A DNA stretch of 62,879 nt, counting the filler, from Stramenopiles sp. TOSAG23-2 (lineage: Eukaryota), in assembly GCA_900128395.1 (NCBI GenBank). It is 8 parts of 8 records of this genome, joined end to end, with 100 filler letters (N's around TTAATTAATTAA, not from the genome) between each part and the next. Parts side by side here need not be neighbours in the genome. Positions count along the whole stretch, not along the records: positions 15,800 to 23,573 come from LT650275.1; positions 23,674 to 31,444 come from LT650276.1; 6 more parts are not named here. One strand, 5' to 3'. A program made the position numbers and the translations under genes. The stretch's first letter is position 1, and each line of letters starts with the position of its first letter. Below are positions 3,362 through 50,200 of this stretch, in pieces. Below the pieces are notes generated by a model, which had not been told where the DNA came from, did no database searches, and was given only the letters and a program-made list of their open reading frames with translations.

Positions 3362-4042
3362 TTAGACAACTATCATACGAAATATAGTATATATAAATAT
3401 TACACACAATTATTAAAGTTTTAAAAAATAACTAAAAATAATAGTTTAAAAGTTTTTCATTAGCTTTTTTTTTTTTGAGCTCAATATTCAGAGGTAAAAA
3501 TTAAAAGAAAGGAAAAAGAAAGTGTTATCTCTGATTTATAAGAAAAATAAGTATTGTAAGAACATAATAATATATAATATTGTATGATTGTGTGGTATTG
3601 ACTTTTGTACACATTCCAAAAAAAATTGAAAAAGAGTGTGTTTGGGTGCCAACCAAACTTCAAATTTATATAACATATTTTCCTCGCATCATCGGTGTGT
3701 GGTGCGTATAGATAGAAATAGGGTTTTGATAGGAGATTCCATTAAGTATACATAATTTAGTAGTAAATTAATTTCGATTCCTTCTAGAATACCAAACTAA
3801 TAAAACTACACACTATTGAAAAATCTCAAATGAAAAAAGAAATGCGTATTTTTATACACCACTATTATTTATATTACAGTTGCTACACATGCTTGCCCGG
3901 CTTGAAAACCAATAATTATATATTCATAATAATATATATATATATAAATTTGTTGATAAACAAATAATATATATATTAAATATTAACAAATATATAAAAA
4001 CGACGTCTGTTTTTATATAAACATCAGAAATAAAGAAAAAAA

Positions 4043-5654: not shown

Positions 5655-5703
5655 TTTACACTTCTTCCTGTCCGTGTGAATGTGAAACAAAAAAAAATTT
5701 AAG

Positions 5704-5728
5704 TAGCGGCTATCGGTTTCGATCCGAT

Positions 5729-5759
<31 letters not shown>

Positions 5760-5775
5760 CCTGCGCCAAGCCGCT
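5704..5775 (-). tRNA. Initiator tRNA-Met (CAT)
   Basis: Minus strand AGCGGCTTGGCGCAGGGGAAGCGTGTTGGGCCCATAACCCAAAGGTCATCGGATCGAAACCGATAGCCGCTA. It has an A1:U72 pair, GGG/CCC in the anticodon stem, a CAT anticodon and the ATCG T-loop typical of eukaryotic initiator tRNA. An oligo-T Pol III terminator lies just downstream (A-run at ~5689-5697 on +). Confidence 0.97.
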
Positions 5776-19001: not shown

Positions 19002-20429
19002 TTATTTTGTCTTCTTCGCATCATCGCTGTAACTCCATCCTTTTATACCGAGATAACTATTTATTTTTCTTATATTAGCCGCTTCGTAAATGCGGGCAAC
19101 TAAGTCAGCAATAAAAACTGGAGAGTTTTCAAATGCGGCGGTATCGACTTCCTCATACAAATACGAACGAGCAAAACTAATTAATGCTTCTTTTCGTGCA
19201 CTATTGACTGAGTAAGAGTTATCTTTATGAGAAAAGCCAGTATCGCGATGTGTTACTTCAATCGAGTTGTAATACTGTGGCAACATGAAATTATAATATT
19301 TTATTGTACCACGTGGACCAGATGCTTGAACGTTAGCTTCTGGCCAAAAGCCTTTGCCATATGATACTTCGATAATAACACGCCGTTTCTTCTTTAACGC
19401 ACTTTCGTTATATTTTGCATGTTCACCTGTTATTTCTTTAAATATTTCTAATTCAACCAGCATCTTATCATCAATATTTTTATCAACACTTGTCTCTGGC
19501 TCTGCACGTATAATTAACACACAAGAAGGATCTTCTATTTCAAATAAAGTTCGTACCATATCAAGGCAAAATGGACCATATCGTCTAAATGCACCTGCAC
19601 CACTACTCGCAGTAGTATCATCTTCTGGGTTTGTACTCGGCCAATACCATGTTGCCCATGATGGAATCGTTAGAACAATTTTAGAACGAAAAATCGGACC
19701 AACTTGTGCTACAGATGCCATAAAACGGCGATATGCAGGATGATGGCGATGGTAAAGGCCTTCTTTTAAAATTAATTTATTTTCCTTAGCAATACGCACT
19801 AATTCTGCAGCTTCTTTCCCTGTGCAAGCAATCGGTGAATGGCATATTACATGTTTTTTTGAATTTAAGGCATCCCGTGTCCATCGAAATCTTACAATAG
19901 GATTTAAAGCGATATATAAAGCATTTAAATCTTTGTTACTTAATAATTCTCTTGGTGAATTGTAGCTACGTAAAACTTTTGGATATGCTTCTATAAAATC
20001 CAACATGTGTTGGCGATGTACATTTCCATATGCATGTACATCAAAACCTTCTATGGTTTTACATGCTTCCATTAAATTATATTTCAAGTCACTTAAATTA
20101 CCAAGTGCACCAATTTTAAATTTATTTTTTTCCTCCTCTTTCCCACCTTTTTTTCCTTTTTTTTTCTTTGTTCCCCTTTCACCACCGCCGGCAGATTTTA
20201 TTACTCCATCAAACCATCTAAAACGCCCAGTTGCATACCCCCACCGAAATAAAATTGTAAACATAAACATACAAAAAAGTGGGGTCATTTGGTGCGATAA
20301 TACGTAGTCAACATAAAGTATACCAGTGTATGGTGTAACTTTTTCCCACCATGGCTTATTAAATTCTTCTACTCGTCTCCTCATCATTTCATCCTCATAA
20401 TTTGGCGTGTTAAAATCTGTTTCCTCCAT
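19002..20429 (-). CDS. Gfo/Idh/MocA-fold oxidoreductase-like protein with N-terminal membrane segment
   Basis: Y.S..ELL..KDLNALYIA..P....W...AL.SKKHVIC..P.A....EA.EL...A.E..L.L.EG...RHHP follows the Gfo/Idh/MocA N-domain pattern. Hydrophobic segment near residues 35-62. Confidence 0.75.
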   Translation of the reverse strand: MEETDFNTPNYEDEMMRRRVEEFNKPWWEKVTPYTGILYVDYVLSHQMTPLFCMFMFTILFRWGYATGRFRWFDGVIKSAGGGERGTKKKKGKKGGKEEEKNKFKIGALGNLSDLKYNLMEACKTIEGFDVHAYGNVHRQHMLDFIEAYPKVLRSYNSPRELLSNKDLNALYIALNPIVRFRWTRDALNSKKHVICHSPIACTGKEAAELVRIAKENKLILKEGLYHRHHPAYRRFMASVAQVGPIFRSKIVLTIPSWATWYWPSTNPEDDTTASSGAGAFRRYGPFCLDMVRTLFEIEDPSCVLIIRAEPETSVDKNIDDKMLVELEIFKEITGEHAKYNESALKKKRRVIIEVSYGKGFWPEANVQASGPRGTIKYYNFMLPQYYNSIEVTHRDTGFSHKDNSYSVNSARKEALISFARSYLYEEVDTAAFENSPVFIADLVARIYEAANIRKINSYLGIKGWSYSDDAKKTK

Positions 20430-21126
20430 CTTGTATTTTTTTAATCTATCTATCTCTCTATACTACAATATGATACACTATAGATATGGATAAAAATAGA
20501 ATGTATTAAATAGATGATTACATAAATCCAAGACAACAATGTCATTTGTCACAATTAATACAATCCTTACATAGTATATGTGTATATGTACATTATTGTT
20601 ATATGTATCCAATTATTATTTTTTTCGGTCCGTATAAAACTACATATGAGTATAGCTAGCTACTCCTATAACTGGCATCAGTATCACACAGTATAGCACT
20701 GGCTTGCAGTATCACAACACAACTTTTACAACAACACAACACAAAATCATACAAAAGGCTATAGTTAGAATAGTGTAAAGCTCGACTATAAGTCCTATAT
20801 GAATTCCCTGGTGCTAGAGAGCTAGAGAGGGCTTTACCTTTTAAGTATAAATTATTGATAGGTGAAATCGTAAAGCCACATCAAACATCCTTACCTGGCT
20901 TACTGGGCTTACCACCAACCATTTTACTACTGTGTATTTTTATTATTATTACGTGCTTACCACATTTATTCATTTTATTGTGCCATTTTGTAGAGATGCA
21001 AGGAAAGAACAATTGTATCGTTGAATACAATCTCAGAGAAGAATAATAGAGATATATAAATATATCACTTAGGTCATTTGTATTTATATAGGATATGTAT
21101 ATGTATATAAGAATATTTGAAACAAT

Positions 21127-21951
21127 ATGACATCACTTGCATCATCCTCGACAGAAAAAGACGAGAAGAATAGTAAAAATACCATTTTATTAACTGATGA
21201 AATTTATGAAAAACTAGAAAATGGTGTTGAGGTTTTCGAGAAACATGTTATAAATAAGGAGGTAAATGCTGAAGGTAATCCATGGAAAGTTGAAAGAGAC
21301 ACTGGTAATATTATCGTCCGTTATTCCGCTTCAAAAACAAATAGTTGTAGAATATTTCATGTTCAGTTTCGAGTAAAAATACCAAAATCATTTGATTTGA
21401 ATGTATTTATAAGTAACCTAATGGATATGCCAAAACGTGTCTCGTGGGATAAATCCATCAAAAGCGCAAAAACACACTCCACATATAAAAGCACGTTGAA
21501 AAAAGATGTAGCTTTATTAAAGGAAGAGGGTACTCAAGTAACCTATGAACTCTCAGAATATACAACAGCTAGTGCTGCTGGTGGCTTAGTTTCTCCCCGT
21601 TGGTTCCTTGATGCAAGGAAATTCACCACAACTAAGGATGGTACTGCTAGTTGTTTTACTGTCGATGCCTCTGGTAGTTCCCTGGTTGATCCAGAAAGTG
21701 GTCATGTAATAGCTAAAAACTATAATGGTGGTGCTTCTCGTATACAACGTATAGAAATATTGGAGGATGGTTTTGAAATTTGGCAAAGTGATAGTGTAGC
21801 TCATTGTAATATAGGTGGTTGGTTACCCACTGCAATTGTTAATCGTGAAACTGGAGGTGCAATGGCTGGAACGTATGAATCGATGTTGTTGCAATTAGTT
21901 GAAAGTAAAGACAATAGTATCATTCCAACAAAAGATTATAATGGAAAATAA
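21127..21951 (+). CDS. START-domain lipid/sterol-binding protein (STARD4/5/6-like)
   Basis: R.SWDKSI, AAGGLVSPRWFLDAR and NIGGWLPTAIVN are typical START motifs. Confidence 0.85.
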   Translation: MTSLASSSTEKDEKNSKNTILLTDEIYEKLENGVEVFEKHVINKEVNAEGNPWKVERDTGNIIVRYSASKTNSCRIFHVQFRVKIPKSFDLNVFISNLMDMPKRVSWDKSIKSAKTHSTYKSTLKKDVALLKEEGTQVTYELSEYTTASAAGGLVSPRWFLDARKFTTTKDGTASCFTVDASGSSLVDPESGHVIAKNYNGGASRIQRIEILEDGFEIWQSDSVAHCNIGGWLPTAIVNRETGGAMAGTYESMLLQLVESKDNSIIPTKDYNGK

Positions 21952-22070
21952 TAATTATATTATAGGTAAGTTTCATGTGACACACACACACACACACACA
22001 CACACTACATACACACTACATACATACCGACATATTGATGTATATAGCATATTGAAGAAGATCATATTTA

Positions 22071-22162
22071 TTTCAGAATGATTAAGAATTATTTTATCTA
22101 CATTGTGTGAGTCTACGGACGTTGAACTGAAAAACTTAACTTTGGAGACCTAATGACTGAAT
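22071..22162 (+). ncRNA. Box C/D snoRNA, U34/snR62-like, with a second guide
   Basis: Terminal stem TTCAG/CTGAA; box C ATGATTA (22078). Guide TTATCTACATTGT plus D' GTGA is antisense to conserved LSU ACAAUGUAGAUAA (D'+5 gives U). Guide CTTTGGAGACCT before box D ATGA (22153) is antisense to LSU AGGUCUCCAAGG. rRNA sequences are recalled, not searched. Confidence 0.75.
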
Positions 22163-22225
22163 TATTTATGATTCTATATATAATAGATCAACAATATATA
22201 CATACATATATAACGGAAAAGCGAA

Positions 22226-22307
22226 CAAAAGAATGATTAATCTTTTGCCGCCCCAGTCCAACTAAACCGTGGGGATATCGCAAGTTATCTATTTTGTATG
22301 ACTTTTG
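22226..22307 (+). ncRNA. Box C/D snoRNA, U31/snR67-like (P-loop Gm)
   Basis: Stem CAAAAG/CTTTTG, extended by AAAAGCGAA/TTCGCTTTT; box C ATGATTA (22233). Guide TGCCGCCCCAGT plus degenerate D' CCAA is antisense to LSU CUGGGGCGGCA; D'+5 hits the second G, the E. coli Gm2251 equivalent. Box D ATGA (22298) is preceded by ATCTATTTTG, antisense to LSU CAAAAUAGAU. Confidence 0.75.
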
Positions 22308-22368
22308 ATTTCGCTTTTTCTTAATGTTACATTGAAATAGAACATTTTGTATTCCAAAAATATCATCA

Positions 22369-22449
22369 CCAATGAGGATCAAATTCTTAGGACACCTTTG
22401 AACCTATTTATAGGTACTGAAACGTATAAACTGTGTTATCTTACTGAGG
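22369..22449 (+). ncRNA. Box C/D snoRNA, U58-like D' guide plus snR68-like D guide
   Basis: Box C ATGAGGA (22372). TTCTTAGGACACCT-TTGA is as in SNORD58, antisense to LSU AGGUGUCCUAAG. CTGTGTTATCTT-a-CTGA (D at 22444) is antisense to LSU AAGAUAACGCAG. Flanking stem TTTGTATTCCAA/TTGGAATACAAA (22346/22466). Confidence 0.8.
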
Positions 22450-22597
22450 AATGATTGGAATACAAACTATTTATGTACATTTTACCTCACCTATCCCTTC
22501 CATTGAAATGCTTATTGATATTGTAAATAATACGTACCATAGTATATGCATTATGTATACGTGTATAGAAACGAAATATATATTTAAATAAAATAGA

Positions 22598-22709
22598 AAA
22601 TCCAGATGAAGATACAATTTAGATGACGAGTCCGACGAAAGATTAGGCGCGTTATGCGTTTAATCATTCAAAAACTGAGCGACAAACGAGGCATTTGTCT
22701 GATGGATTT
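22598..22709 (+). ncRNA. SNORD15: Box C/D snoRNA U15 (SNORD15) homologue
   Basis: Stem AAATCCA/TGGATTT; box C ATGAAGA; GATGACGAGT-CCGA (D'); internal hairpin GATTAGGCGC/GCGTTTAATC; ACGAGGCATTTGT-CTGA (D). The box C variant and both guides match the recalled U15 layout. Confidence 0.88.
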
Positions 22710-24063
22710 ACATATATATATGCAATTTTTAAATACATACATACATACATACGTATATACTGCAATATTATTAAAGATGTTATGGCATTATCAATCTATG
22801 TAAAGCATTGTTTGTCAGGTTCGGTCTAGATTATTATTTCAATTAGATATATGAATTTGAAACAAGGCAAGAGCAATGTTTGTATCTTGGGATTTGCATG
22901 GAGATTAGATAATCCACGTCTCTTTTTTTGCATTATAGAGCAACAACATTATATGTACCTATATATATTATACACACGCACACACAAAGGACCCTTTCAA
23001 TTTATCTTACACAAAAGGAGTATTTTCTAACATTATATCCATATATATATCCAATTATTGTTTTAAATAATAGAAATGTAAAAATGTGTATGATACGAGA
23101 ATAATATAATGTGATTGTATTTGCAAATGAATGTGTATGTATCATTACCTTATATATATACAAGATATGGTTAAAATCGAAAGTTAAATAAATAATTTTA
23201 CTTCTCGTGGTGGTAATAAGAAAAAAATGTATTGATAATATACACTGATATTCATGTGTGAAAAAATATTTTACATGATATATATAAAAAAACTAGAGGA
23301 ACATAATGATATATTTATCATGTACTCGTACATTATCATAAAATAAAGTACGACGTATAATTTATGGTATAATAAACTTAGATTTTAACCATCAATCTAT
23401 GATATTATGCATAGTTAGAATAGTAATAATAGACATAGATAGTAATAATATTATAAATATATCTCATAAAATAAAAGTAATAATTTTAAATACATACACG
23501 AAGTAATAAAAATATAAAATATATGACCCACCGGCGATAAGATCCGTACGATTTGGGTAAATACCTTACAACGNNNNNNNNNNNNNNNNNNNNNNNNNNN
23601 NNNNNNNNNNNNNNNNNTTAATTAATTAANNNNNNNNNNNNNNNNNNNNNNNNNNNNNNNNNNNNNNNNNNNNGATTTCTACCTTTTTTTGATCAAAATC
23701 AATAGTGAGTAGTTATAAAAATTAACATAGACACAGCATAGTCTAAAGAAGGCGGCACGTGATGATGTACTGTTCTCTGGACACCGAGGCATTTTAATTT
23801 CCTGGTCCAAATCTACGTTTTCCAGATTTAGATGTGATGTGTGCATCATGTGATTTGATGAATGTAAATGCTGGAATGATGAATAATTAAAATAATAATA
23901 AATAGTCTAATAAATATATTAAATTATATAGACTAAATATAAATCAGAGAAAAACAAAGAGTAAGTAAGAAATATATATATATATATACAGTACTAGAGA
24001 TTGGCATTACAACACACATATATACAATAGATATAATAATAGAAGACATTTACACTTGTCAAC

Positions 24064-25338
24064 ATGGTGTTGAATCCAACATTTTTGGCACAACAACAAA
24101 ATAATAATACATCATCAAATGGTACTAATACACCTACTTATATGATAGAATGTGCAGGTCCTGATGGTAAATTAATAACACACTTACCAACTTATTTTCC
24201 CGTCTTTAATTGCATCGATGAATCCATACATGGTAATTCAGATGCATCATCTAATTCAGATCAAGGTATTTGTTTTATATGGGGTTGTTTATTGTCAGTT
24301 ATTTTAACGTTGTTATCGGCTGGCACTTTTATAGCTTTTTTATTATTATGTCGTTCACATATTATTGTTGATGGTTCAAGGACAACTAAATTAATTTTTT
24401 TCTTTTCATTTTCGTCATGTGGTTTATTTTTATTGCAACAAATTTTTGATGGTGATCCACATATAGCGGCAGTAGGCGAATTAATAGAAGGTTCTGTATC
24501 AATTTGTGTTGCATTTGTATTGGCGTCGTTATTATGTCGTATATATGAAAAACCAAAAAATATTGTATATGTTGTCATGCCATTGTTTAGTGTAATTATT
24601 TTAGCAAATTTAATTATCTTCATATGTGGTTCCTTTGGTACTTTTACTAGCAAACGTAATCATGTTTTAGATTGTCATGATCCAACATGGATATTATTTA
24701 ATGTATTAGACTCTATTTTATGTACTTTTAGTTTGCTTGCTGCATATGGTATATCAAGAAAAATGAAAAAGATGTTAATTAGTGAAAATTATCGAAAGCG
24801 AAAGACGAAGCAAATATGGATCGTTGCAATAATATATAGTTTATCTACATATGTTACATTGATTTATTCCATCACTAGATATGTAAATAGTTTTAAAGAT
24901 GAAAATGAAAATATTTGTGATCATTGGGAAATTGAAAAAGTAGAAAATTCAACTGTGAAAGATGCATTATCGAAATTATCGTTTGGGGTATTAATGTACA
25001 TAGTGGATACATTTGTACCCATGTGGGCAGTGGTCATATTGATTCGTGATTTATTTCCAGCAGATCGTTCCTCAAGTAGTGGGCGTAGTTCTAGTTGGAG
25101 TGGTGAAGAATATATTGGTCGGCCTGGTGGTAGTTTTTTAGGACGTACAAGTAGTTTATTAAATGATGATAGTTTATTAAGCACAGTTATGGAAGGTGAA
25201 GAAGATGCTGAGGATGGTAATAATGGTGGTGGTAGAGTATTATCTACCCGTGATTTAATATTAGACAGATCTTATAGTAAAGATGGTGGTCAATATTTAT
25301 CAAGTAAAAGTTCTCAAAGTTATAGTTTAACTGGGTGA
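24064..25338 (+). CDS. Multi-pass (~7 TM) membrane protein, GPCR-like/TOM1-GPR137-like topology
   Basis: Seven hydrophobic segments, a basic loop between TM5 and TM6, and a Ser-rich cytoplasmic tail. Family not firmly identified. Confidence 0.6.
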   Translation: MVLNPTFLAQQQNNNTSSNGTNTPTYMIECAGPDGKLITHLPTYFPVFNCIDESIHGNSDASSNSDQGICFIWGCLLSVILTLLSAGTFIAFLLLCRSHIIVDGSRTTKLIFFFSFSSCGLFLLQQIFDGDPHIAAVGELIEGSVSICVAFVLASLLCRIYEKPKNIVYVVMPLFSVIILANLIIFICGSFGTFTSKRNHVLDCHDPTWILFNVLDSILCTFSLLAAYGISRKMKKMLISENYRKRKTKQIWIVAIIYSLSTYVTLIYSITRYVNSFKDENENICDHWEIEKVENSTVKDALSKLSFGVLMYIVDTFVPMWAVVILIRDLFPADRSSSSGRSSSWSGEEYIGRPGGSFLGRTSSLLNDDSLLSTVMEGEEDAEDGNNGGGRVLSTRDLILDRSYSKDGGQYLSSKSSQSYSLTG

Positions 25339-25725: not shown

Positions 25726-26352
25726 TTACGCATTCAATTGTGCTCTTAATTTACGCAATGCTTCTGTATTTTCTTCTTCTTTCTCTTCACTAAGTTCATC
25801 AACTGCTGTTGTTTTACCAACTACTCCCATATCATCAATTGCACTTGCAATTTCTAAACCATGTTCCGAAGCAACTTGTTCCATTAATTGATCTACTTCG
25901 TCTATTGGTGTAGTAGATGCTTGAACGCCACTCATAGTTTGATCCATATACTCAGCTTTAATATCCAGTTCATCAAACATGGTTTCAAATTGCGACATTG
26001 TATTTGTAAGCTTATCGACATCCATGGCTTTCATAGCATATTCCATACCTTTAACAGTACTTGCCATTTGTTTAGAAACTTGTTTCATTCTTTGTGCAGA
26101 CTCTAACTTTGCAGCGACAGCGTCTAACTTTGACGATAAACCTAACATTTTAATACCTGTCTTATGGTCAGTAATGGCCATTTGTGCATATTGTTTTGCA
26201 ATATCCATGTTTCCGTCTTCAATGGCCTTTTTAACCTCTTGACGACGCTTTTTGCTTTGTTTTTCATATTTTTGATATCGTTTTTGTAATTGTTTTGAAG
26301 TAAATTTCATATTAAATATTTCATTTTGAATATTCGAACCAGAGTTCCCCAT
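25726..26352 (-). CDS. CHMP1: ESCRT-III subunit CHMP1/Did2/Vps46
   Basis: From ATG 26352: MGNSGSNIQNEIFNMKFTSKQL..KKAIEDGNMDIAKQYA..LSSKLDAVAAKLE..STTP.DEVD.LM.QVA.EHGLE. The C-terminus has a MIM1-like EALRKLRAQL (208 aa). Confidence 0.92.
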   Translation of the reverse strand: MGNSGSNIQNEIFNMKFTSKQLQKRYQKYEKQSKKRRQEVKKAIEDGNMDIAKQYAQMAITDHKTGIKMLGLSSKLDAVAAKLESAQRMKQVSKQMASTVKGMEYAMKAMDVDKLTNTMSQFETMFDELDIKAEYMDQTMSGVQASTTPIDEVDQLMEQVASEHGLEIASAIDDMGVVGKTTAVDELSEEKEEENTEALRKLRAQLNA

Positions 26353-27091
26353 AATGATATAGCGAATTAAGACAACAATTATGAATGTATATGTATATAT
26401 ATATATATGCGTGTCACTCACTCTTTGCACATATCTCTTCTTCAAAGAATTAGTAATATATTTATTATATATATTTTGAAAAACGTCAAAAATATGGACG
26501 AACAATACATCATATATATATATACCTTTATTAATTGATGAAAAAATTATTAATACTTTTATTCTCTGTATAGTATTATATACCAGGTAGAGTATAGTAG
26601 TACTGTAGTAATTATGATGTGACCATCTTATTATTATAAATACTAAAAAATGATGTGATGGGTTTTTAGTTATGCCAGTATAAGGTCTGCACGTCTGAAT
26701 GAAAATATGTTGAAGATAGTTCTAATAGTATACACAGTATTATTTGTATTATACTACTTAGTATACCAATATGGCCTAGTAGTATTATCTCGACCATTTT
26801 TTGTTGTGGTGTTATATACCTGGTATTATAGTGCATTTTTTTTTATATAATTATAATAGGTGCATAATATATAGTAGCTTGTTGCAATCATCATTTGGCA
26901 TTAATTCATCCTCCAGGCAATAATTATTTCATACGACTAAAATAAATATATGTATAAAGTTCATTTAAGATGTTGTGTATAGATATATGTACATATATGT
27001 TGGACAATTATAAACATACATAATAACATATTATATATTATAATATAGAACTAATTCAAGAATACAGAAAAGAAGAAAAGCGCGCGTGTGC

Positions 27092-27124
<33 letters not shown>

Positions 27125-27176
27125 GTTATATAGATCGATAGATACTACTATATACTACAATAATATAATATATATT

Positions 27177-28676
27177 ATGTCGTCGACGAAATTACGAGAT
27201 AATGCATTAGATTTAATTGGAAAAGCTATTAAAAAAGATCATAAAAAAGCGACGACGAAGGAAAAAACGGAAGCATTGCATCTGTATATTCAAGGTTTAG
27301 AAGCGTTAAAAAAAGCAATCAAATATGAAAAACTTCCAGCAATTATTAATCAATTGAAAGCATATTCTGATACACAAGAAGAGCGTTGTAAACAACTTTT
27401 GGAAGAAATTAAAAATCCAGGTTCAACATCAGCATCTTCAGGTAGCAGCAGCAGTAGTAGTAAAACGAACAATGATAATGATAAGAAATCATCGGAAAAA
27501 AAAAATGGGAATGACGATAGTGAAAGTAGTAAAAATAAAGATGGCGACAACGATGATGAAGATGGTAAAGAAGCAGAAGCAATTGATCCTGAAATGGCGA
27601 AATTACAAAAAGGTCTAGCTGGGGCTATATTAGGTGAAAAACCTGATGTCAAATGGGATGATGTTGCTGGTTTAGATGCAGCAAAAGCAGCTTTAAAAGA
27701 AGCTGTTATTTTACCAGCAAAATTTCCACAATTGTTCACTGGGAAACGCAGGCCATGGAAAGGCATTTTATTATATGGTCCACCTGGAACAGGGAAATCA
27801 TATTTAGCAAAAGCAGTGGCAACGGAGGCGAAATCAACTTTTTTTTCTGTCTCTTCATCTGATCTTGTATCGAAATGGCAAGGGGAGAGTGAAAAATTAG
27901 TGAAAAATTTATTTGAAATGGCACGTAAACGCAAGCCAGCAATTTTGTTTATTGATGAAATTGATTCTTTATGCGGTGCACGTGGGGAAGGTGAAAGTGA
28001 AAGTTCAAGACGAATTAAAACAGAATTTTTAGTACAAATGCAAGGAGTTGGCCATTCACATGATGGCATATTAGTTTTAGGTGCAACAAATACACCATGG
28101 AGTTTAGATCCTGCTATGAGACGTAGGTTCGAAAAACGAATTTATATTGCCTTGCCAGATGAAGAGGCCCGTGCAAGAATGTTTGATATACATTTAGGAT
28201 CTATGGAAAATACATTGAATAAACCAACAGATTATGATAAATTAGGTGCGTTGTCCGATGGTTATTCTGGTAGTGATATTAGTGTTGTAGTTAGAGAAGC
28301 TTTGATGGAACCTGTGCGTGAATGTCAACGTGCAAAATTTTTTCAGATAACAAATGATCAAATGTTAGCTCCAGTGACAAAATATCCACCATGCAGCCAA
28401 TGTCCAATGAAATTCGATAATGATAATGAGCCGGATAATTGGACATTTGATTTTATCAATCGACAACATCCACGTAGATGCAATAGATGCGGTTGCATAC
28501 GTATGAGGTTGATGGATCGCGCATTTATACCTATGGCAGATAAATTAAAAGTGCCAGATGTTGCTTTTAAACATTTTAAACATGTTTTAGATCAAGGTGG
28601 TGGTGCAACAGTTGGCCCAGATGAATTGACAAAATTTGAGAAATGGACGGAAGAGTTTGGACAGGAAGGAGATTAA
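27177..28676 (+). CDS. VPS4: AAA+ ATPase VPS4
   Basis: N-terminal MIT domain; [62 protein letters not shown]-terminal [10 protein letters not shown]. Confidence 0.97.
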
Positions 28677-31804: not shown

Positions 31805-34800
31805 ATGTCTTTCAAACGCTATAAATTGTATTGTTTGGTCCCCCACATTGCAAATCTACCAAGATTTATGGAAGAGCAGTTAGATGAATGCCAAAAAATG
31901 GCTGTACTTTCTGATATTGAAAAACCATTAAAAGTACTAGCCGGTCCAGGATCTGGAAAAACAAGAACAATGTGTGAAAGGATACGACACATGATTAATA
32001 ATAAAAATGTCTCCCACGATGATATATACGTAACAACATTTACAAGGGATGCTGTAAAAGAAATTAAGAAACGTTTAATGGATCAACTATCGGGGGTATC
32101 AACTATTCATGGTTTATGCCGATATATTATAAATAAGTTCCAAGCAGAAGGAAGCGATATATTATCCGACGAAAAGGGCGACGATAATATTATGAAAGAA
32201 TGTTGCAAATTTATAACAACAGACGCACGTAATGAAATAAAATTTATTGAATTTAATGATGAAAACAGTCTTAGGGATGAAGTAGGTAAAATTATATTAG
32301 ATTTTTTTGAAGCATTTTGGAGATCGAAAGGCGCCGTACAACATATGTGGACGAAAAAAGAGGACATTTACGAAAAATTTACTCAATATTGTTCAGGAAA
32401 TGCAAAAGAAAGCACGGAAAAAAAAATTAAGAAAATTGTATTGGATAATACCAATGATAGCGTGGAAACGTTGTATAAACATTTATGCTCAAAACAAATG
32501 TTTGAGAAAAATTCACGTTTAATATATTCAAACGAGCATGTGAAAACAATTGCTTTCTCCAAACTATTGCCTAGAGCCTTATATGTCTTTGAAAAATCAA
32601 CAGATGATGAAAAGAAAGAAAAAATGAAGTCAAAATATTATATCGTCGACGAATTCCAGGATACTGACTACGGACAACTAGAACTTTTTAAAGTTTTATG
32701 TTCTGAATCTGGTCGATTTACTTGTGTTGGTGATATTGATCAAAGTATTTATGAATTTAGAGGTGCTAATCCTATTATTCTTCATAAAGGTGTTGATACA
32801 ATTTTTAACAATATGGAAACGATCATATTGACAAGCAATTATCGATCCTCAAAAAACATTGTTAATTTAACACAAGCATTAATCAATAATAATGAGAAGA
32901 ATAGAAGAGCACAGTATGAGGTAAATCCGGTACGTAATGCAGCAGAGAAGAAAGTTGATATCCTGGAAACAACTAGCAATATGATTGAAGCAAAGCGAAT
33001 TTTGCATGTGATTCAAGAAACTGCGAAAGAACAAAATGACTGGAATCATGCTGTACTTTTTTACAAGGAAAAACAATGCGATTTTTTTAGAGCATATATG
33101 AAAAAAACACATTTAATGTATGTAAATAATCAACGTATTAAGAATATCACATGCACAACAATACACAAAGCAAAAGGAATGGAATGGGATTGTGTATATG
33201 TAGGGGGTATAGATGCTGAGTGGATTTTTGGATACAATAGAGACGAGAGGAAAGAGTTAAGTCATAGGGAAATTAATAAGGTAGAGGAAAAACGAAGGCT
33301 TTTTTATGTTGCATGTACTAGAGCAAAATCATATTTACATATTAGTTACTATAATATTGGCAATGAAGTGGGTAATGCAAACGTATCCAATAGTTGCTGT
33401 TTCATAGACGAGATAAAAGCATGCAAAGGCGAATTCATCAACTTCATGAGGATACATGATCAAGATCATACAACAGGTGGACAGAACGCAATAGAAGAAT
33501 TTCTTCAGCGAAGATTTAAAACGGATTGTTTTGCTGTTGATGATGCAATAAATGAAGCATGCAACAACATTTCTCAAAAATATGACATAGGTTTGGATAA
33601 AATCCAGGATGTCGTAAGGAGATATTTACCAGAAAACGAAGGTAATATTCTTCGTATAGACGGTTTGCTCGATGCATTGGATAAAGCCATTCAATGTATT
33701 GAACGGAAAAATATCAACATCCGGTTACTTTTCAAATATAAATCCAGAGAAAATGACGATGCAAAAAGATTAATTATAGATCTTGAGACAAAGCAAAACA
33801 ACGACAATCCTGAAAAAAGTAAAATCATCTCTTCTTTTCTTCAATGTTGCTCCGACAAACACCAATGGGAACAAGGAAAACGAGGAGCTTGGCAAAACAC
33901 TGTTCAATCTTTATTTAAATTATCCCCATCAGGTATTGGATCGTACGTTCATTTTAATCGATGTAACCGCATGCTTCATCGTTCAACAGATCAGATACAT
34001 ACAATAAACGGAAACGGGAGCGAAAAAGTAGACCAAGTACCACACGCATCTAGAAAATCAGCAATTTTGAGAAAAGGTTTAGAATGGGAAGACGAATTAA
34101 ACAAATGTCTCTTTAATGATAATTGGTACATCATTGATATTTTGAATAAAAATGAATGCAATTCGCTGTATAAAGTTGATGGGCAAATAATAGAAAAAAT
34201 ACAGGCCATTGAACGTCCTTGTGAGTTGACAAAACATTTTTTACTTCTTTCACGCGGTTCATATGCACGTATATGCATAAAATTAAATTCTGAATGTAAT
34301 TTGCTTGAAGAGAAAATCTTTAAAGTAGGGAATTCTGACGTAACATTCAAACCTGCCATGTCAAAAAATCTTATTGCCACTGTATTTTACAATGGAGCTG
34401 ATGATATCAATCAATTGAAACGATGGATGAAGAACATTAATCTTGCTCTTTGTTTTGAGGTAGAAGCACATGCTGCTCATGATTTTAGTATTAATATCAT
34501 ACAAGTGGAAAGCAATATTATTTCAAAGCATGAACTTGTGGAATCAGAATGGCAACATCAAAAGACTTTTAATGGAGTCATTCTATTTCAAGCAGAATTC
34601 AATGCACAGGATTCATTTTATAAAGAAAATGATTTAGATCAAAGTGTTTCTAAAAAATTAAAATCGCGTTTAGAAAATGAGAATCTTCAGCGCGTCATTG
34701 CATTTAGTACTTTAAAACCTGATTATATACGGATGAGTGCGCAACCTGCTTATATCGAATTAGAAATTATTGATGCAAAAGCATCGAAATGTATCAAGTT

Positions 34801-37800
34801 GGAGCATAAAGTTCAAGTGGGATTATATTCATTGGTATTACAAGATATAATAGGCCATCTTGCACCAAACGACTATGTTGCTCGAAATTTTAAAATTGCG
34901 CCAAATGGTGGAGTGTTTTTACCACCACATCGAATATTACATAAAGAAGAAAAATATATTCTTGAACAATTTGCATTGAAAGATGTTGAAAAAATACTGA
35001 AGATTTTCTTATCTAAACAAATAAAAAAAGTGCTAAGTGAGATAAATTGGGATGGAGATGGCTATAAGAATCAGTCATGGCAATTTCAACAAACTTGTTC
35101 AGACTGTCAATTTTCTCAAAATTGTCACGACGAAAGCATGAAAGATAAACGTTTATCATTTATTCCAAATTTAAATGAAACATACTATAATTTCTTTCAA
35201 AACAAGCTTCCTGACATTGAAAATGTAGGTGATCATATTGGAGAAAATGATAACCTAGATGAAATTACTAAATTAAGCAAGCATGTTTTAATCCCCCCTC
35301 GCAATGCACAAGAATGGAAAGCTAATCGTTATGGGTTATGTATAAAATATGACATAGACATAATAAATCAAGAAGAAAATCAGAATATTAACAATGCTGA
35401 ACATGTTGTTGCAAATGATAATAACCGGGAACTTTCACCTGCTTTAAAAATTGCCCCAACAGGATCAAGCCCAAAGATTCTAGCAATCCAAAAAAACACG
35501 CCATATTTGAATGGAAATAAATCTACGTCATTTCCAAATAATCTTGATGTTGCTGTATATTTAACATTTGAAACCGATCCTCAAACAGATCGTTTATATG
35601 CATATGCCATAAAGTATTGTGATTCGCATAACGATTATTCAAAAGCATCTGATCTATATGCGCAAGTATTACCAAAGTATGTAACACGTAGTGAGGAGGA
35701 AGTCCATCGAAAGTTGCAAATAAATATGATACGAAATTTGATTACGAAGCTACATGAGTTTATGAAAAGAGCTGAAGGATTACGTACGGCATTTTTTTTT
35801 CAGGATAATGCTGACTTAGCAATATTTCGTAATTTCCTGTTAGAAGCAATCTTATCAGGTGATGATGTAGATATCGAAGGCAATAGCTTGCTTGATCAGG
35901 CATATGTATGTTTATCAGCTTTAGTTCAAGATCCTGGTTTATTGCAAGCATTGTTGATTAATGATTTAACACCGGGTTTTAGACCAAATGCTTTAAAGGA
36001 TAAAAATAAAAAATATTTTGAACAAGAAGAGACAAGGCTAAAACAAGAAATTAAAGCATTATATGGTGAAGAACATGAATTTCAAATAATTGAAGAGACA
36101 TTAAGTAAAATAGAGAAAGAAATAGAGAAAGAAATTAATGATATTGTGGATTTGAACGATGATGGGAAAGAGGAAGAAGTAAGAGACAAAGTGATAGAGT
36201 ATGCGAAACAAAAAAAACTTCCAAAGGGTACGGTAGAAAAATACAAGAAGCAAAAAATTAAAACTATTTTCAATTCAAAGGCGAAAAGCTCTTTGAAAAA
36301 TGAAGTGCTTTGTCGTCGTAAAACTACTTACTTAAGAAATTGTCGCATTGCAGTTGGGTGGCGCCAACTAGGGAAAGAACACAAATTGAATGAATGGAAG
36401 ACAAAGCTGATTGATGAAATTAAAGAAGAAATTAATGATCTTCAATCACGGCAGAACAACATTTATGCCGAAGATGTTTTACCTAGAACAGTTGTTCTAA
36501 TGTCTGAGTTTGAACACTTAATTGCCTTACCAGATTCTCCAGGATTTTATCAAATTGCTTCTATGTTAAAATGGTTTGATCATGCTGAATCTGGATTTAA
36601 AAATCGAGAAAAGTGGCATGAAAAAGCTAAACAAATATCAAATATATTTTCAAATAATGCTGTATTTAGGGATTGGTCTTTTAGTTATATATTTCCGAAA
36701 AATAAGCGTTTGGAAAATCTATTAGAATATCGTTTATTAGCAATGGCAAGCATTACATGTGGTTTACGTAGTCATATTTTAAATGCAGATAGAAGCATTT
36801 TACCCCACTGTGCTGGAAAGTTATATTTAAAACCACCAACAAAATGGAAGAGTCCTTTATTTTCTAAGTTATTTTTCATAACACAATTTGAAGATATTTC
36901 TCATGCATCTAAAGTTAGGGATGAGAGAAAGGGCGATCTTGATGAAAAATTACAAAGTGGAAAAGCTTTTGAAATAATTTACAATAAAGATGAAGATAAT
37001 ACCATGATGTTTGAAGTAAAAACATTTACATTTGCACCTATACCAAAATTGAAAGAAAACTCTTTTGCTTTTGATTTTTTCTTGTTTCCAAAGGGAATAG
37101 AGCAGGGTAAACAAAGCGACGGCGAATTATCATCTTTACGTTTTCCTGACCTAAGTTGTAGCTCTAATTATTATAGCCCGTATTGGAAAAATATGTTATT
37201 CTGTAAAATATGTAAGCACGAATTAAATTTCCATGAAAATAATATTAAAACATCTATTGGATTAAACATTTCAAAATATCCTAAACATCTTTTTTCGAAG
37301 GTGAAAGTAACAAAACATTTTATTTTGCAAAAACGTCATATTTCTATTAAAGTTACAGATACCGTTGCAGTATTACAATTATTAGATAATGCAAATATAA
37401 ATGATGATAAATTTAATAATTTTTACCATTTAGTTTACAATACTGAAACGTGGCGCCCGAACGTGGAAGGAGAAGGAATATTGAAAACGTTCACTAACAA
37501 AGGTATTTTCAATGATGCGTTTCAAGATGGTAGTAACGACAGAAAACTTGCTCGAAATCACTGCAATAGTCTCTCTGTATCCCAACGGGAAGTGTTTGAC
37601 GCAATTTTTACAAACAGATTAATTATATGTTGGGGTCCACCTGGTGCAGGTAAAACATATTTCGCCGCACATAGTATTTTAGCATTGATTCACGCTGCAC
37701 AAAGCGTAGATCATAAATATTATAATGTTTTAGTGACTGCGCAAACGAATACTGGGGTTGACAATCTTAAAGAGAAGTTGGAAAAAGAAATTGAAAAAGA

Positions 37801-38941
37801 ATGTTATGGCAATAATATTCCTGTATATCATAAAAAAACTCCATTAAAAGAAATACCCTCAAAATCATTTATTTATTGTGGAACAGTTTTTAATATACGT
37901 ACTACATTAAAGAAATTTGAGAGAAAAAACATTCCAACATTCGATTTAATAATTGTAGATGAAGCATCGCAAATGAAACTTCAAGAGTTAGCTTTTGTAA
38001 TGCAATACCTAGATCCAGTGAATGGCCGCATACTAGTTGTTGGAGATCATTTGCAACTTCGTCCTATATTTATCAACGAGTATCCAAAAACGTTATTACA
38101 TGAGGATTTAGTACAATTGGACACATCTATACTCACATTTTTCCGTGATAAATTAGGGGAAGATCATGTATTATCGTTGAAAGATAATTACAGAATGTCA
38201 GAAACGTTAGCTAAGTTTACGGAAATAACGTATCCAGAGTATACATATAAACACGTAGACAAACCACGCAATATACTGAAATTACCCTTTGAACACGAGG
38301 AAAATGAGATGAACTCAACATATGATAGTGTTTTTACATCTGAAAAGGCACTTCAAGTGGTCTTTTTGGAATATGAAAAAAACGATGGACAAGATCGAGT
38401 TTATCGCAGAGAAGCTGATTTTGTATGCAAGCTTATTCGTAACGTTTATGATGCATTTGCCGACGATGACGATCGGCAGGAAAAAATGAAAGAAATTTTT
38501 ATTATTACACCACACCATGCACAACAAGATTTGATAAATGCAAGATTACCAACGTTCAAGGTTCCTGAAGAAGTGAAAAATGCTATGGTAATAAAGACAG
38601 CGGAATGCGTACAAGGAAAAGAAGCGGAGCTAGTAATAATATGCTATTCGTATGTAGATTTTCATTCCAATGAAACAGAATTAGATTTTATATACGATTT
38701 AAACAGATTGAATGTAGCAGTCACCAGAGCAAAAGAAAGAGTTATTTTTGTAACAACGAAGAATGTTGTCGAGGACGCTTCTTTGGAACTCCTTGCAAAG
38801 GATGCACGAATTTCAGGATATCATTATATTCAAAATATAGTGAAGCAAGGTGATTGCAGGACGATTCTAGAAAATGAGTATGGGGAACAAGACCTAGGTT
38901 ATAATGATAATTTGTTAAATGACGACGAAGAAAAGGTATAG
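31805..38941 (+). CDS. Giant dual helicase-nuclease: UvrD/Rep SF1A helicase + RecB-like PD-(D/E)XK Fe-S nuclease + RNase_H_2-like + Upf1/Dna2-like SF1B helicase
   Basis: N-terminus: AGPGSGKT, TFT..A..E, STIHG, VDEFQD, VGDIDQSIYEFRGA, NYRS, TIHKAKGMEW, RRLFYVACTRAK. Middle: LSPS..C, KPDY, IIDAK, QVGLY, CSDC.F...C, YLTFETDP. C-terminus: GPPGAGKT, VDEASQ, VGDHLQL.P, NYRM, ITPH.AQ, QGKE, RLNVAVTRAK. Intronless; a second possible start is at 31868. Confidence 0.9.
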   Translation: MSFKRYKLYCLVPHIANLPRFMEEQLDECQKMAVLSDIEKPLKVLAGPGSGKTRTMCERIRHMINNKNVSHDDIYVTTFTRDAVKEIKKRLMDQLSGVSTIHGLCRYIINKFQAEGSDILSDEKGDDNIMKECCKFITTDARNEIKFIEFNDENSLRDEVGKIILDFFEAFWRSKGAVQHMWTKKEDIYEKFTQYCSGNAKESTEKKIKKIVLDNTNDSVETLYKHLCSKQMFEKNSRLIYSNEHVKTIAFSKLLPRALYVFEKSTDDEKKEKMKSKYYIVDEFQDTDYGQLELFKVLCSESGRFTCVGDIDQSIYEFRGANPIILHKGVDTIFNNMETIILTSNYRSSKNIVNLTQALINNNEKNRRAQYEVNPVRNAAEKKVDILETTSNMIEAKRILHVIQETAKEQNDWNHAVLFYKEKQCDFFRAYMKKTHLMYVNNQRIKNITCTTIHKAKGMEWDCVYVGGIDAEWIFGYNRDERKELSHREINKVEEKRRLFYVACTRAKSYLHISYYNIGNEVGNANVSNSCCFIDEIKACKGEFINFMRIHDQDHTTGGQNAIEEFLQRRFKTDCFAVDDAINEACNNISQKYDIGLDKIQDVVRRYLPENEGNILRIDGLLDALDKAIQCIERKNINIRLLFKYKSRENDDAKRLIIDLETKQNNDNPEKSKIISSFLQCCSDKHQWEQGKRGAWQNTVQSLFKLSPSGIGSYVHFNRCNRMLHRSTDQIHTINGNGSEKVDQVPHASRKSAILRKGLEWEDELNKCLFNDNWYIIDILNKNECNSLYKVDGQIIEKIQAIERPCELTKHFLLLSRGSYARICIKLNSECNLLEEKIFKVGNSDVTFKPAMSKNLIATVFYNGADDINQLKRWMKNINLALCFEVEAHAAHDFSINIIQVESNIISKHELVESEWQHQKTFNGVILFQAEFNAQDSFYKENDLDQSVSKKLKSRLENENLQRVIAFSTLKPDYIRMSAQPAYIELEIIDAKASKCIKLEHKVQVGLYSLVLQDIIGHLAPNDYVARNFKIAPNGGVFLPPHRILHKEEKYILEQFALKDVEKILKIFLSKQIKKVLSEINWDGDGYKNQSWQFQQTCSDCQFSQNCHDESMKDKRLSFIPNLNETYYNFFQNKLPDIENVGDHIGENDNLDEITKLSKHVLIPPRNAQEWKANRYGLCIKYDIDIINQEENQNINNAEHVVANDNNRELSPALKIAPTGSSPKILAIQKNTPYLNGNKSTSFPNNLDVAVYLTFETDPQTDRLYAYAIKYCDSHNDYSKASDLYAQVLPKYVTRSEEEVHRKLQINMIRNLITKLHEFMKRAEGLRTAFFFQDNADLAIFRNFLLEAILSGDDVDIEGNSLLDQAYVCLSALVQDPGLLQALLINDLTPGFRPNALKDKNKKYFEQEETRLKQEIKALYGEEHEFQIIEETLSKIEKEIEKEINDIVDLNDDGKEEEVRDKVIEYAKQKKLPKGTVEKYKKQKIKTIFNSKAKSSLKNEVLCRRKTTYLRNCRIAVGWRQLGKEHKLNEWKTKLIDEIKEEINDLQSRQNNIYAEDVLPRTVVLMSEFEHLIALPDSPGFYQIASMLKWFDHAESGFKNREKWHEKAKQISNIFSNNAVFRDWSFSYIFPKNKRLENLLEYRLLAMASITCGLRSHILNADRSILPHCAGKLYLKPPTKWKSPLFSKLFFITQFEDISHASKVRDERKGDLDEKLQSGKAFEIIYNKDEDNTMMFEVKTFTFAPIPKLKENSFAFDFFLFPKGIEQGKQSDGELSSLRFPDLSCSSNYYSPYWKNMLFCKICKHELNFHENNIKTSIGLNISKYPKHLFSKVKVTKHFILQKRHISIKVTDTVAVLQLLDNANINDDKFNNFYHLVYNTETWRPNVEGEGILKTFTNKGIFNDAFQDGSNDRKLARNHCNSLSVSQREVFDAIFTNRLIICWGPPGAGKTYFAAHSILALIHAAQSVDHKYYNVLVTAQTNTGVDNLKEKLEKEIEKECYGNNIPVYHKKTPLKEIPSKSFIYCGTVFNIRTTLKKFERKNIPTFDLIIVDEASQMKLQELAFVMQYLDPVNGRILVVGDHLQLRPIFINEYPKTLLHEDLVQLDTSILTFFRDKLGEDHVLSLKDNYRMSETLAKFTEITYPEYTYKHVDKPRNILKLPFEHEENEMNSTYDSVFTSEKALQVVFLEYEKNDGQDRVYRREADFVCKLIRNVYDAFADDDDRQEKMKEIFIITPHHAQQDLINARLPTFKVPEEVKNAMVIKTAECVQGKEAELVIICYSYVDFHSNETELDFIYDLNRLNVAVTRAKERVIFVTTKNVVEDASLELLAKDARISGYHYIQNIVKQGDCRTILENEYGEQDLGYNDNLLNDDEEKV

Positions 38942-47284: not shown

Positions 47285-50200
47285 ACAAATCTCATTCCTA
47301 TAACAAAATCACAGTCTTCAAATGTCAGCTGATCACCATTTAAATACTTTTTGGATTGCTTTAAACGTTCTTCAAATGGTTCAAACATTTTTAAAACATC
47401 GCCTAATAAGGGTGTTTTCGATGCACCAAAAGGACTAAACAATGCAAATTTATTCAGTGCTTTGTATTCACTTTTAATATTCTTTAAATCAAACATATCA
47501 ATATTTTCAATATTTGGAAAACGCCGAGTCAGTTCTTGAGCAACATTTTCCGTTTCAAATATCCATTTTCCACTACTGTATAAAAATGGTGTAGTAGGCT
47601 TTTCCCCATCTTCTCGCAACGGTTTGTGCCAGCTTTCTTTAGCTTTTCCAAATAAATTAACTGCAATTAATTTATATGGAATTTTACAATGGTACATTAC
47701 CATCTCAACTGTCGCTGAGTATGGGCAAACTTTTAGCAAACGGCCATTTGAATTGTAACAGCAGCCAACACCTAAGACTAATGTTTCTTCATCTAAATTT
47801 GGTATATCTTCGATAGTGACAAACTCAGGACATGGAAGCCTACGATGTTGCTCTAATACAGGCAATTGCATACCAAATCGCCAAGCAACAAAGTCTATAA
47901 CTTCTATTCCTAGTTCAATTTCAACGTCTAAAATTCTTTCCTCACTTTTTCGAACACAGTAGCTACCTCTAGATTGTTGAAAAGCAGGAGAGCGTTTCAC
48001 TCTATCAAAATATTTCCCCAAAGTATCTTCATACTCTTGTATTATATCATGATTTTTGGACACCATAACAACATTATAACCATTCAAAAATTGGTGCACA
48101 AAGTGACAATCTGATAATGACAATGTTGGTCCACAAAGGAATCCCCAATTCAACTCTAGTTGTTTTATAAATGGTTCTAAATCTTCTTTTACTTTTATCC
48201 ACGCCTTTTCCTCCTTTTCAGACCCTTTCTCGGTTTTAGCATAGCCTATCATCCCCATTAAATTAATCCGTTTATCAAATTTTTCGGTCAATAATGTAAA
48301 TGGTTTTGTCATCTGTACATCATCTTTATACTTTATACGTAATTTTTCAAGTATAACTTCCGTATCAAAAACCCATTCATCATCGATTCGCATACATGGC
48401 GTTGTTGGCTTTCCATCCTTGTGAATATCTACAAACCAATCCTCCTTCTTCTTAGCAGTAAAATCTACACAAACAACTTTGTACGGCAATTTCATACCCT
48501 TGATTACCATTTCAATCGTAGAACTGTACGGACAAATTTTTACAAGCTCTCCTGATGATATATAAATACCACCTGTGACTAAAACCAAATGATCTCTCTC
48601 GTATTTTGGAACATCTTTTACAGAGATTATGCTTCCCCATGTGCTAGATGGATGGTCAAATTGTTTAGTAGATGAAATAGACTCGTTGGTAAAGGACATT
48701 ACTCTATCGTAATTTGCCATTTGTAACCCCCATCGATTTATGGCATAATGCAAAAACATCTTTCCAAACTCATATTCAACAAGTTCTACATCAAGTTCCG
48801 TATGTCGTATTTCCCATGCACCCTGTGGAGCGTAGTGTATGAATGAGTGATGTTGATGCGTTAGAGAGGATATACCTTTTTTAAGTTTAGGGGAATAAAA
48901 TTTTACTTACTCTTACGAATTTCCAACTATCACGCATTTTCAATCGTTTTAAATATGAACTTAGCTCTGGAACAGATTCCATCATATCAGTTCCTTTTAA
49001 TACTTTTACAAATACTCCAATACTACACATCTGTTGTGAGAAAAAACAATCACTATAAGAAAGGCTATCGCCACCTAAATATTTATTTGTCTTCAATCGA
49101 TCAACGTATGGTTGTAACAATGCCATCAAATTTGCACGTGTTGTCTTTTCTTCTTCTGAATTATCTTCGCTTCCCGCATATTTAGCTACTGTCATAGCAG
49201 AAAATTTATCATAACCGTCTGTATATGATAAAATTTTATCATTAAATGTATTTTTTTGCAATCGTTTTAATTCATTAATAATATTAATTGTATCAAATAT
49301 CCATTTGCCATCACTATACAAACATGGGACAGCTGGTTTACTTTCTGGATGAACCTTTTTAAACCATTCTGGTTTATTATCCCCACAAAACATATCTGTG
49401 CGTATAATCTGATATGGTATTTCAGCTTCAATCATTGCAAATTCTAAGGCACAACAATACGGACACATGCGCATGTACTCTCCACTACTTCTTAAAGTAA
49501 CACCACCAGCAACAAGTACAACTGTTCCTGGAGGTAAATTTCCTGCAATAACATTTTCATACGTTGTAATTTCTTTATGCTTTAAATTAACAGCTTTCAC
49601 GGCTTTATCATAATTAGCCATAGGTAATTTCCACCTGTTTCTTCCATATGTACAAAATTGTTTTCCAAACTCATATTCAACAAGTTCTACATCAAGTTCC
49701 GTATGTCGTATTTCCCATGCACCCTGTGGAGCGTAGTGTATGAATGAGTGATGTTGATGCGTTAGAGAGGATATACCTTTTTTAAGTTTAGGGGAATAAA
49801 ATTTTACTTACTCTTACGAATTTCCAACTATCACGCATTTTCAATCGTTTTAAATATGAACTTAGCTCTGGAACAGATTCCATCATATCAGTTCCTTTTA
49901 ATACTTTTACAAATACTCCAATACTACACATCTGTTGTGAGAAAAAACAATCACTATAAGAAAGGCTATCGCCACCTAAATATTTATTTGTCTTCAATCG
50001 ATCAACGTATGGTTGTAACAATGCCATCAAATTTGCACGTGTTGTCTTTTCTTCTTCTGAATTATCTTCGCTTCCCGCATATTTAGCTACTGTCATAGCA
50101 GAAAATTTATCATAACCGTCTGTATATGATAAAATTTTATCATTAAATGTATTTTTTTGCAATCGTTTTAATTCATTAATAATATTAATTGTATCAAATA

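Follow-up and report, generated by a model that had tools for sequence, protein, structure and literature searches.

The window analysed here (the whole stretch of DNA, 62,879 nucleotides long with filler included) consists of separate contigs of Stramenopiles sp. TOSAG23-2, joined by N runs flanking a 12-nt spacer at positions 23574-23673 and at six similar places. It includes a START-domain gene with an uninterrupted reading frame, followed by an intron located in its 3′ UTR; four predicted box C/D snoRNA units and a probable H/ACA unit lie within this intron, all of them on the plus strand (Table 1). The cluster is single-copy: a search of the own genome gave no match besides the locus itself, on contig G000:C2441. 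As this contig ends at 23573, genes past that point need not adjoin the cluster in the genome. The LSU and SSU rRNA genes of this genome are both on contig G000:C689, and the SSU gene includes the exact complement of the MAST4 probe listed in PMC4234645. This suggests a MAST-4-type stramenopile, an assignment based on one probe site, provided that the rDNA stems from the same cell as the locus. All sequencing runs of stated source that contain the stretch are marine or seawater metagenomes (three more are unlabelled), and a phage collection searched with the cluster gave 0 matches.

Table 1. Features of the START-domain locus, in positions of the window.
Feature	Position	Strand	Description
START-domain host ORF	21127..21951	+	274 aa, uninterrupted frame; PF01852, E 1.9e-9, 37.6 bits (cut-off 22)
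3′-UTR intron	21966..23073	+	1108 nt, GT-AG; GTAAGT donor 14 nt after stop codon, AG acceptor
Unit 1, box C/D	22073..22161	+	predicted ends
Unit 1 box C / box D	22078-22084 / 22153-22156	+	AUGAUUA / AUGA
Unit 1 D′ guide	22092-22106	+	D′ GUGA; predicts LSU Um1982 (U34/snR62 site)
Unit 1 D guide	22139-22151	+	box D AUGA; predicts LSU Um1947; U59-like, 2-nt shift
Unit 2, box C/D	22227..22307	+	predicted ends
Unit 2 box C / box D	22233-22239 / 22298-22301	+	AUGAUUA / AUGA
Unit 2 D′ guide	22246-22257	+	degenerate D′ CCAA; predicts LSU Gm2699 (U31/snR67 site, P-loop)
Unit 2 small GNAA hairpin	22274-22289	+	conserved
Unit 3, box C/D	22367..22452	+	predicted ends
Unit 3 box C / box D	22372-22378 / 22444-22447	+
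Unit 3 D′ guide	22385-22397	+	UUGA; predicts LSU Gm2731 (U58 site)
Unit 3 D guide	22431-22442	+	CUGA; predicts LSU Am2720 (snR68 site)
Unit 4, box C/D	22601..22707	+	plant SNOR75/U15-type double guide
Unit 4 box C / box D	22606-22612 / 22699-22702	+
Unit 4 D′ guide	22619-22630	+	CCGA; predicts LSU Gm2361 (snR75 site)
Unit 4 D guide	22686-22697	+	CUGA; predicts LSU Am2354 (U15/snR13 site)
Unit 5, probable H/ACA type, two hairpins	22806..22951	+	conservation and folding
Unit 5 H box / ACA	22870-22875 / 22946-22948	+
Branch-point-like CTAAC	23027-23031	+	sequence motif
Second, non-coding START mRNA exon	23074..23325	+	covered by X1 record 5 to 23216 and by X3 record 15 to 23325

A preliminary description of this DNA had proposed four box C/D units with LSU-directed guides, and these were found at that place, all on the plus strand. 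When the plus strand of region 22030-22760 was compared with the rRNA of the organism itself, nine perfect matches of at least 10 nt were obtained. Eight of them adjoin a D or D′-like box and pair with the LSU rRNA over 11–15 nt; the ninth (10 nt, 22707-22716) is an AT-repeat. Seven of the guides, 12–15 nt long and located directly upstream of D or D′, are conserved. The number of matches exceeds that expected from 500 dinucleotide shuffles: five of at least 12 nt (shuffle mean 0.29) and six of at least 11 nt (mean 1.0) were equalled by none of the shuffles, nine of at least 10 nt (mean 3.6) by 5 of 500, and one of at least 13 nt (mean 0.07) by 32 of 500. Seven minus-strand antisense matches of at least 10 nt in the region were rejected, as they are without a C/D frame. 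In all four units, the terminal boxes C and D can fold into a kink-turn with a closing stem. Shuffled flanks gave an equally good stem in 2, 0 and 0 of 300 cases for units 1, 2 and 3; the stem of unit 4 is less clear (20 of 300). Units 1 to 4 are described as predicted methylation-guide snoRNAs, the mature RNAs and the methylation being deduced from the sequence.

The Rfam match anticipated for these units did not materialize at the gathering score, which in the whole window is reached by one tRNA and by no snoRNA. The best score, 35.4 bits where the cut-off is 50, is that of unit 4 with SNOR75 (E 4.7e-5), followed for this unit by snR75 (E 0.0019), both below the gathering cut-off. Other sub-threshold hits are snoU31b, SNORD58, SNORD34, snoZ159/U59, TtnuCD6, DdR5 and DdR13. 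The units share guides and targets with Rfam families SNORD15, SNORD31, SNORD34, SNORD58, SNOR75 and snR75, but are not formal members of them. Human Gm4228 is presumably guided by U58, which fits the SNORD58 hit.

By the D+5 rule, the eight stretches point to nucleotides U1982 and U1947 (unit 1), G2699 and A2004 (unit 2), G2731 and A2720 (unit 3), and G2361 and A2354 (unit 4), in own LSU numbering; the register of the unit 2 D′ guide was taken from Rfam alignments. For six of the eight candidates the prediction falls on an Nm site already known for the respective family (U34/snR62, U31/snR67, U58, snR68, U15 or snR75) in the tables of PMC8583080, PMC11542601 and PMC8817022, sites being mapped by base and spacing and not by direct alignment to yeast or plant rRNA. 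In these tables, own G2699, A2720 and G2731 repeat the spacing of Gm2620, Am2641 and Gm2652 (U31, snoR68Y and the human Gm4228 site), A2354 and G2361 that of yeast Am2281 and Gm2288, and G1945, C1950 and U1982 that of Arabidopsis Gm1855, Cm1860 and Um1892 (U59, U55 and U34). This agreement argues that six guides target conserved sites. The earlier assignments to U34/snR62, U31/snR67, U58 plus snR68, and U15 are borne out by pairings with the own LSU, by sub-threshold Rfam alignments in the same register and by published site spacing. Proximity to the peptidyl-transferase centre, also claimed before, applies to some of the targets, such as G2699, the equivalent of E. coli G2251 according to PMC11542601; the two targets of unit 1 lie in a region which that source links to the exit tunnel. 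U1947 (Arabidopsis 1857) and A2004 (Arabidopsis 1914) are absent from the compared Arabidopsis, tomato, tobacco and Dictyostelium rows of the tables, in which yeast and human sites appear only where shared; a Um at the U1947 position may occur in the Euglena, trypanosome, Tetrahymena or Chlamydomonas lists, which lie outside the tables compared.

Unit 1 has a D′ guide in the register of SNORD34/snR62 (RF00147) and a D guide overlapping that of plant snoZ159/U59 (RF00160), both on one RNA; AtU34 has a single guide and AtU59 is joined with an 18S guide in the tables of PMC8583080. For Ot-CDsno94, the supplement of PMC7671301 yields U55- and U59-register guides and, in the part available, no U34-type guide. 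Unit 2 shares with SNORD31, snoU31b, snR67 and DdR13 the D′ guide and register for the P-loop G, but differs from SNORD31-type RNAs in its degenerate D′ box, in a swapped C/D pair and in a conserved hairpin that replaces the second guide. Unit 3 has the U58 guide at D′, as related to SNORD58 (RF00151), snR68/snoR68Y, Tetrahymena TtnuCD6 and Dictyostelium DdR5, the consensus of the latter including sequence like both unit 3 guides. The two guides of unit 4 address LSU positions 7 nt from each other, an arrangement shared with AtU15, and the unit is to be compared with plant SNOR75/U15 (RF02539), yeast snR75 (RF01185) and snR13, and SNORD15; relative to the SNOR75 model it has an 18-nt insertion. 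AtU15 targets Am2271 and Gm2278 in the table of PMC8817022.

The region had also been regarded as ORF-free. There is indeed no ATG-started ORF of at least 120 aa in 21951-24064, yet the region forms an intron of the gene before it. Contigs from four RNA runs of three studies, RNA runs only, were placed on 20400-23570. The START ORF is covered by contigs in three of the four runs, X2 being the run without cover of the gene. In X1, the contig of record 5 extends from 21120 to 21961 and resumes at 23070-23216; in X3, from another study, that of record 15 extends from 21869 to 21961 and resumes at 23070-23325. Owing to a 4-nt repeat, the junction 21961/23070 is movable to 21965/23074, and it is seen in two of four runs and two studies. 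These contigs show transcription of the host gene and splicing of the 1108-nt intron, which begins 14 nt past the stop codon. Contigs of X5 end at 21965 or extend to 21970, in a fork-like manner. Other contigs of lower depth (4-5, compared with 9-13 on the exon) lie on portions of the intron and extend over several units; they may represent DNA or unspliced RNA. The contig of X1 record 7 diverges at 22797 with 112 unlike letters, not at a splice motif, which may reflect a strain difference or a chimera.

One scan of metagenome contigs with a pattern for the two guides of unit 1 yielded eight loci. Two were dropped before conservation was counted: L007, with no box C frame and no cluster, and L012, the antisense of an rRNA gene. 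The six other hits have the same four-unit order, L006 being cut by the contig end after unit 3. The seven copies correspond to about five independent lineages, because L010 hardly differs from the window, nor does L006 from L009. In L006, L009, L010 and L011 the cluster is preceded by a START gene of 71-99.6% identity, and in all four the donor follows the stop codon by 12-37 nt. In the available flanking sequence of L005 and L008, neither a START gene nor a plausible same-strand upstream gene was found; neighbours of L008 match other contigs of this genome at 64% and 39-44%, and the neighbour of L005 at up to 29%. All five complete loci have donor, branch-point and acceptor motifs around the cluster, delimiting introns of 782-1111 nt, and these motifs suggest that splicing takes place in the relatives too. 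Regardless of the presence of START, the donor is located 97-132 nt before the unit 1 guide in all related loci. Compared with L011 and L009, the units are 84-100% identical and the spacers 33-80%. Flanking stems could be scored for 20 of 24 unit-locus pairs (the search pattern did not pick up unit 1 in L005 and L008, and units 3-4 of L006 are cut off); in 17 of the 20, at most 15 of 300 shuffles were as good, with letters changed. The preservation of stems with changed letters supports the previously proposed role of the stems in processing. That proposal, one precursor processed through its flanking stems, was incomplete insofar as the precursor is the spliced 3′-UTR intron of a START-domain mRNA.

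The preliminary description ended the cluster at 22710, after the four C/D units, and so left out unit 5. This probable H/ACA snoRNA has the layout hairpin-hinge-hairpin-tail, with an ANANNA box and an ACA or AUA box. Four different ANANNA variants are present in the window, L011, L009 and L008, with variation at free positions only; the tail box is ACA in the window and in L011, and AUA in L009. The unit is conserved in L009, L010 and L011, and L008 keeps the first hairpin and the H box. Identity in L009 and L011 is 84-95%, compared with 33-80% for spacers, and two-sided covariation was found in 0 of 44 pairs among the four close copies. Rfam gives a weak H/ACA hit (E 0.43). The best target scores, 9.5 (SSU U308) and 11.5 (SSU U529), were each reached by 14 of 25 shuffled rRNA sets, and candidates SSU U308, U453, U529 and LSU U1607 were rejected as not better than shuffled rRNA; we take SSU U308 to be possibly the yeast snR49 site. 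The lack of RNA contigs at 22838-23049 is not evidence against unit 5. In L005, the predicted acceptor precedes the place of unit 5, so the cluster of that locus would have four units.

Two guide stretches admit different readings. All 7/7 copies retain the D guide of unit 1 together with box D AUGA and the one letter between them, and the earlier prediction of a Um from this guide applies to each of them, at a site absent from the table rows compared. In front of box D the RNA is 2 nt shorter than the U59 consensus, and its target thereby moves from G1945 to U1947; the simplest reading would be a U59-like guide that slid between these positions on the same RNA as the U34 guide. It is also conceivable, although we hold it for the less probable option by a good measure, that there is no new Um1947, and that the guide is read from the CUWA before AUGA to C1950 (the U55 site), still modifies G1945 (the U59 site), or acts only as a helix chaperone. 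CUAA and CUUA are one change from CUGA and would place C1950 at +5, a register which is that of Rfam Afu_294 and a mapped site in plants and human in the tables cited above. Pattern scans of the own genome detected no convincing separate U55- or U59-register snoRNA: of the hits of these searches, two were rRNA and a chance-level match, and four more comprised three within long open frames and one at a contig end without box C. The patterns were narrow and the assembly is fragmented (9146 contigs), so the absence of a U55 or U59 gene proves little. Against the CUWA reading, CUWA is without the GA that a kink-turn needs, and the terminal stem starts directly after AUGA, with a matching U in box C, in 7/7 copies; in units 1 and 2 alike, AUGAUUA/AUGA form a compensated pair (U-A for G-C in the kink-turn stem) in 7/7 copies. 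That the stretch before box D in unit 2 is a lineage-specific guide for LSU A2004, as had been proposed, appears unlikely, in spite of an 11-nt duplex in the window and L010 and of 9 nt in the same register in L006 and L009. Its duplex is the weakest of the eight (-11.1 kcal/mol), and its 5′ half is an arm of the conserved hairpin. Judged on the LSU of this genome, the pairing next to box D is lost in three of six relatives: L011 has the break at D+6, and L005 and L008 show a break or a shift. The weak duplex, the breaks and the hairpin overlap together indicate that the match is probably due to chance. By the same LSU, the D guide of unit 3 selects A2720 in the START-hosted copies; in L005 and L008 its target lies at A2716, a difference from the families named above.

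As to the locus as a whole, we consider it highly probable (about 0.88) that it is an intronic polycistronic snoRNA cluster in the 3′ UTR of a START-domain gene of a MAST-4-type marine stramenopile. Another reading is that the joined contigs reflect a genomic deletion in some populations or an assembly artefact. The join, consisting of two pieces of one record, is known from RNA runs alone and is missing from the listed contig joints; the same join nevertheless occurs in two studies, the sequence at its ends reads GTAAGT and AG, accompanied by a branch-point motif, and the motifs are conserved in diverged loci, so that we give a deletion or artefact hardly any credit. A cluster with a promoter of its own, of the independent polycistronic type of plants and yeast, merely located inside the intron or made both ways, is improbable as well. 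The absence of START from the available flanks of L005 and L008 speaks for it, meaning that the cluster does not need that host, as do intron-internal contigs starting near 22018 in X1 and X5. Those starts coincide, on the other hand, with a skipped simple repeat (21971-22017), the constant distance from donor to unit 1 guide is unexpected for a cluster independent of splicing, and the cluster lies within the spliced intron of a host transcript and not outside any intron, as an independent intergenic polycistron would.

Under the preferred reading of a spliced 3′-UTR intron, the excised intron would carry four box C/D RNAs and one H/ACA RNA. By analogy with established snoRNA biology, each C/D unit would form a kink-turn closed by its long flanking stem and bind Snu13, Nop56, Nop58 and fibrillarin. 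The units would be parted by endonucleolytic cuts in the spacers and then trimmed, the stems being candidate RNase III-type signals. The resulting RNPs would methylate, according to the D+5 rule, the conserved LSU nucleotides U1982, G2699, A2720, G2731, A2354 and G2361, and in addition U1947. Junction-triggered decay has a limit of 50-55 nt from the stop codon, and the short stop-to-donor distance (12-37 nt) would keep the mRNA below it.

Intronic clusters in which one precursor yields several snoRNAs per intron are described for plants, Chlamydomonas and Ostreococcus tauri (clusters 3 and 5) in PMC7671301 and PMC11028025. The present locus likewise has several different snoRNAs in one intron, but it is carried in the 3′ UTR of a START gene whose ORF is uninterrupted, and not by a ribosome-biogenesis gene, it belongs to a stramenopile lineage, and related loci retain the intron without the START host. 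Mobility of snoRNAs between hosts is established, and the idea of "constrained drift" was put forward in this context (PMC3511168); the host change fits it, here for the whole cluster. More tentatively, the entire snoRNA intron may be a conserved module that changed hosts in marine stramenopiles, with a non-coding host in two lineages and the START 3′ UTR in the MAST-4-type one, at so short a distance from the stop codon that the mRNA would escape decay; guides would slide by a few nt (U59-like to U1947; snR68 A2720 compared with A2716), towards methylation sites unmapped in model species. Protist snoRNA annotation is thin according to PMC11028025, and introns are not mentioned in PMC8237690. 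A literature search found no report on snoRNAs in MAST-4 or on stramenopile intronic snoRNA clusters, and a broader one, judged from listings and with most subscription journals outside its coverage, no cluster in a 3′-UTR intron. The observation is real and mostly conventional; distinctive are the 3′-UTR host, the retention of the intron through a change of host, the compensated C/D boxes and the conserved guide for an unlisted site. The locus provides testable guides, missed by Rfam cut-offs, for an abundant uncultured marine grazer (predator). It also presents a 3′-UTR intron as snoRNA carrier in a gene without other ORF intron, in a region that gene finders would label intergenic, and through the predicted Um1947 it can be tested directly whether sliding guides give rise to new rRNA marks.

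Further snoRNA-like sequences were observed elsewhere. Locus L015 (G000:C5502:320-3350, minus strand) includes U14 (48.4 bits) within a putative GTAAGT..CTAAC..AG intron, with a C/D-like unit before U14 and an H/ACA-like stretch after it; a second donor and further C/D-like units follow. No clear protein-coding or ORF-bearing host is apparent there within 3 kb, and L015 is likely a non-coding multi-intron snoRNA host. Since U14, too, is flanked by a donor and a branch point and accompanied by other snoRNA-like units, intronic clusters may be a habit of this genome. In L008, a U61-like C/D snoRNA (3774-3848, plus strand; 49.8 bits, E 5.9e-9) occurs on the strand opposite to the cluster, at a distance of about 1.9 kb, and weaker hits nearby are SNORD87-like (615-695) and U6-53-like (3584-3667). 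On the contig next to the cluster in the window, a box C-like motif at 23755-23880 is followed by a 9-nt piece resembling the unit 4 D guide, and no D-adjacent guide was found there.

The rest of the window holds several unrelated features. A tRNA-Met(CAT) with the look of a eukaryotic initiator is located at 5703-5775 (minus strand). Two adjacent, divergent ESCRT-pathway-like genes occupy 25726-28676, one being VPS4, named from cluster members, and the other presumably CHMP1-like by resemblance. At 48887-50528 (minus strand), two near-identical tandem ORFs of 244-246 aa, which by eye we assume to be glutathione-transferase-like, lie beside a related 508-aa ORF and represent a duplication or an assembly repeat. 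Finally, a 2378-aa ORF at 31805-38941 seems, by eye, to begin like a UvrD helicase and to end with another helicase-like region.
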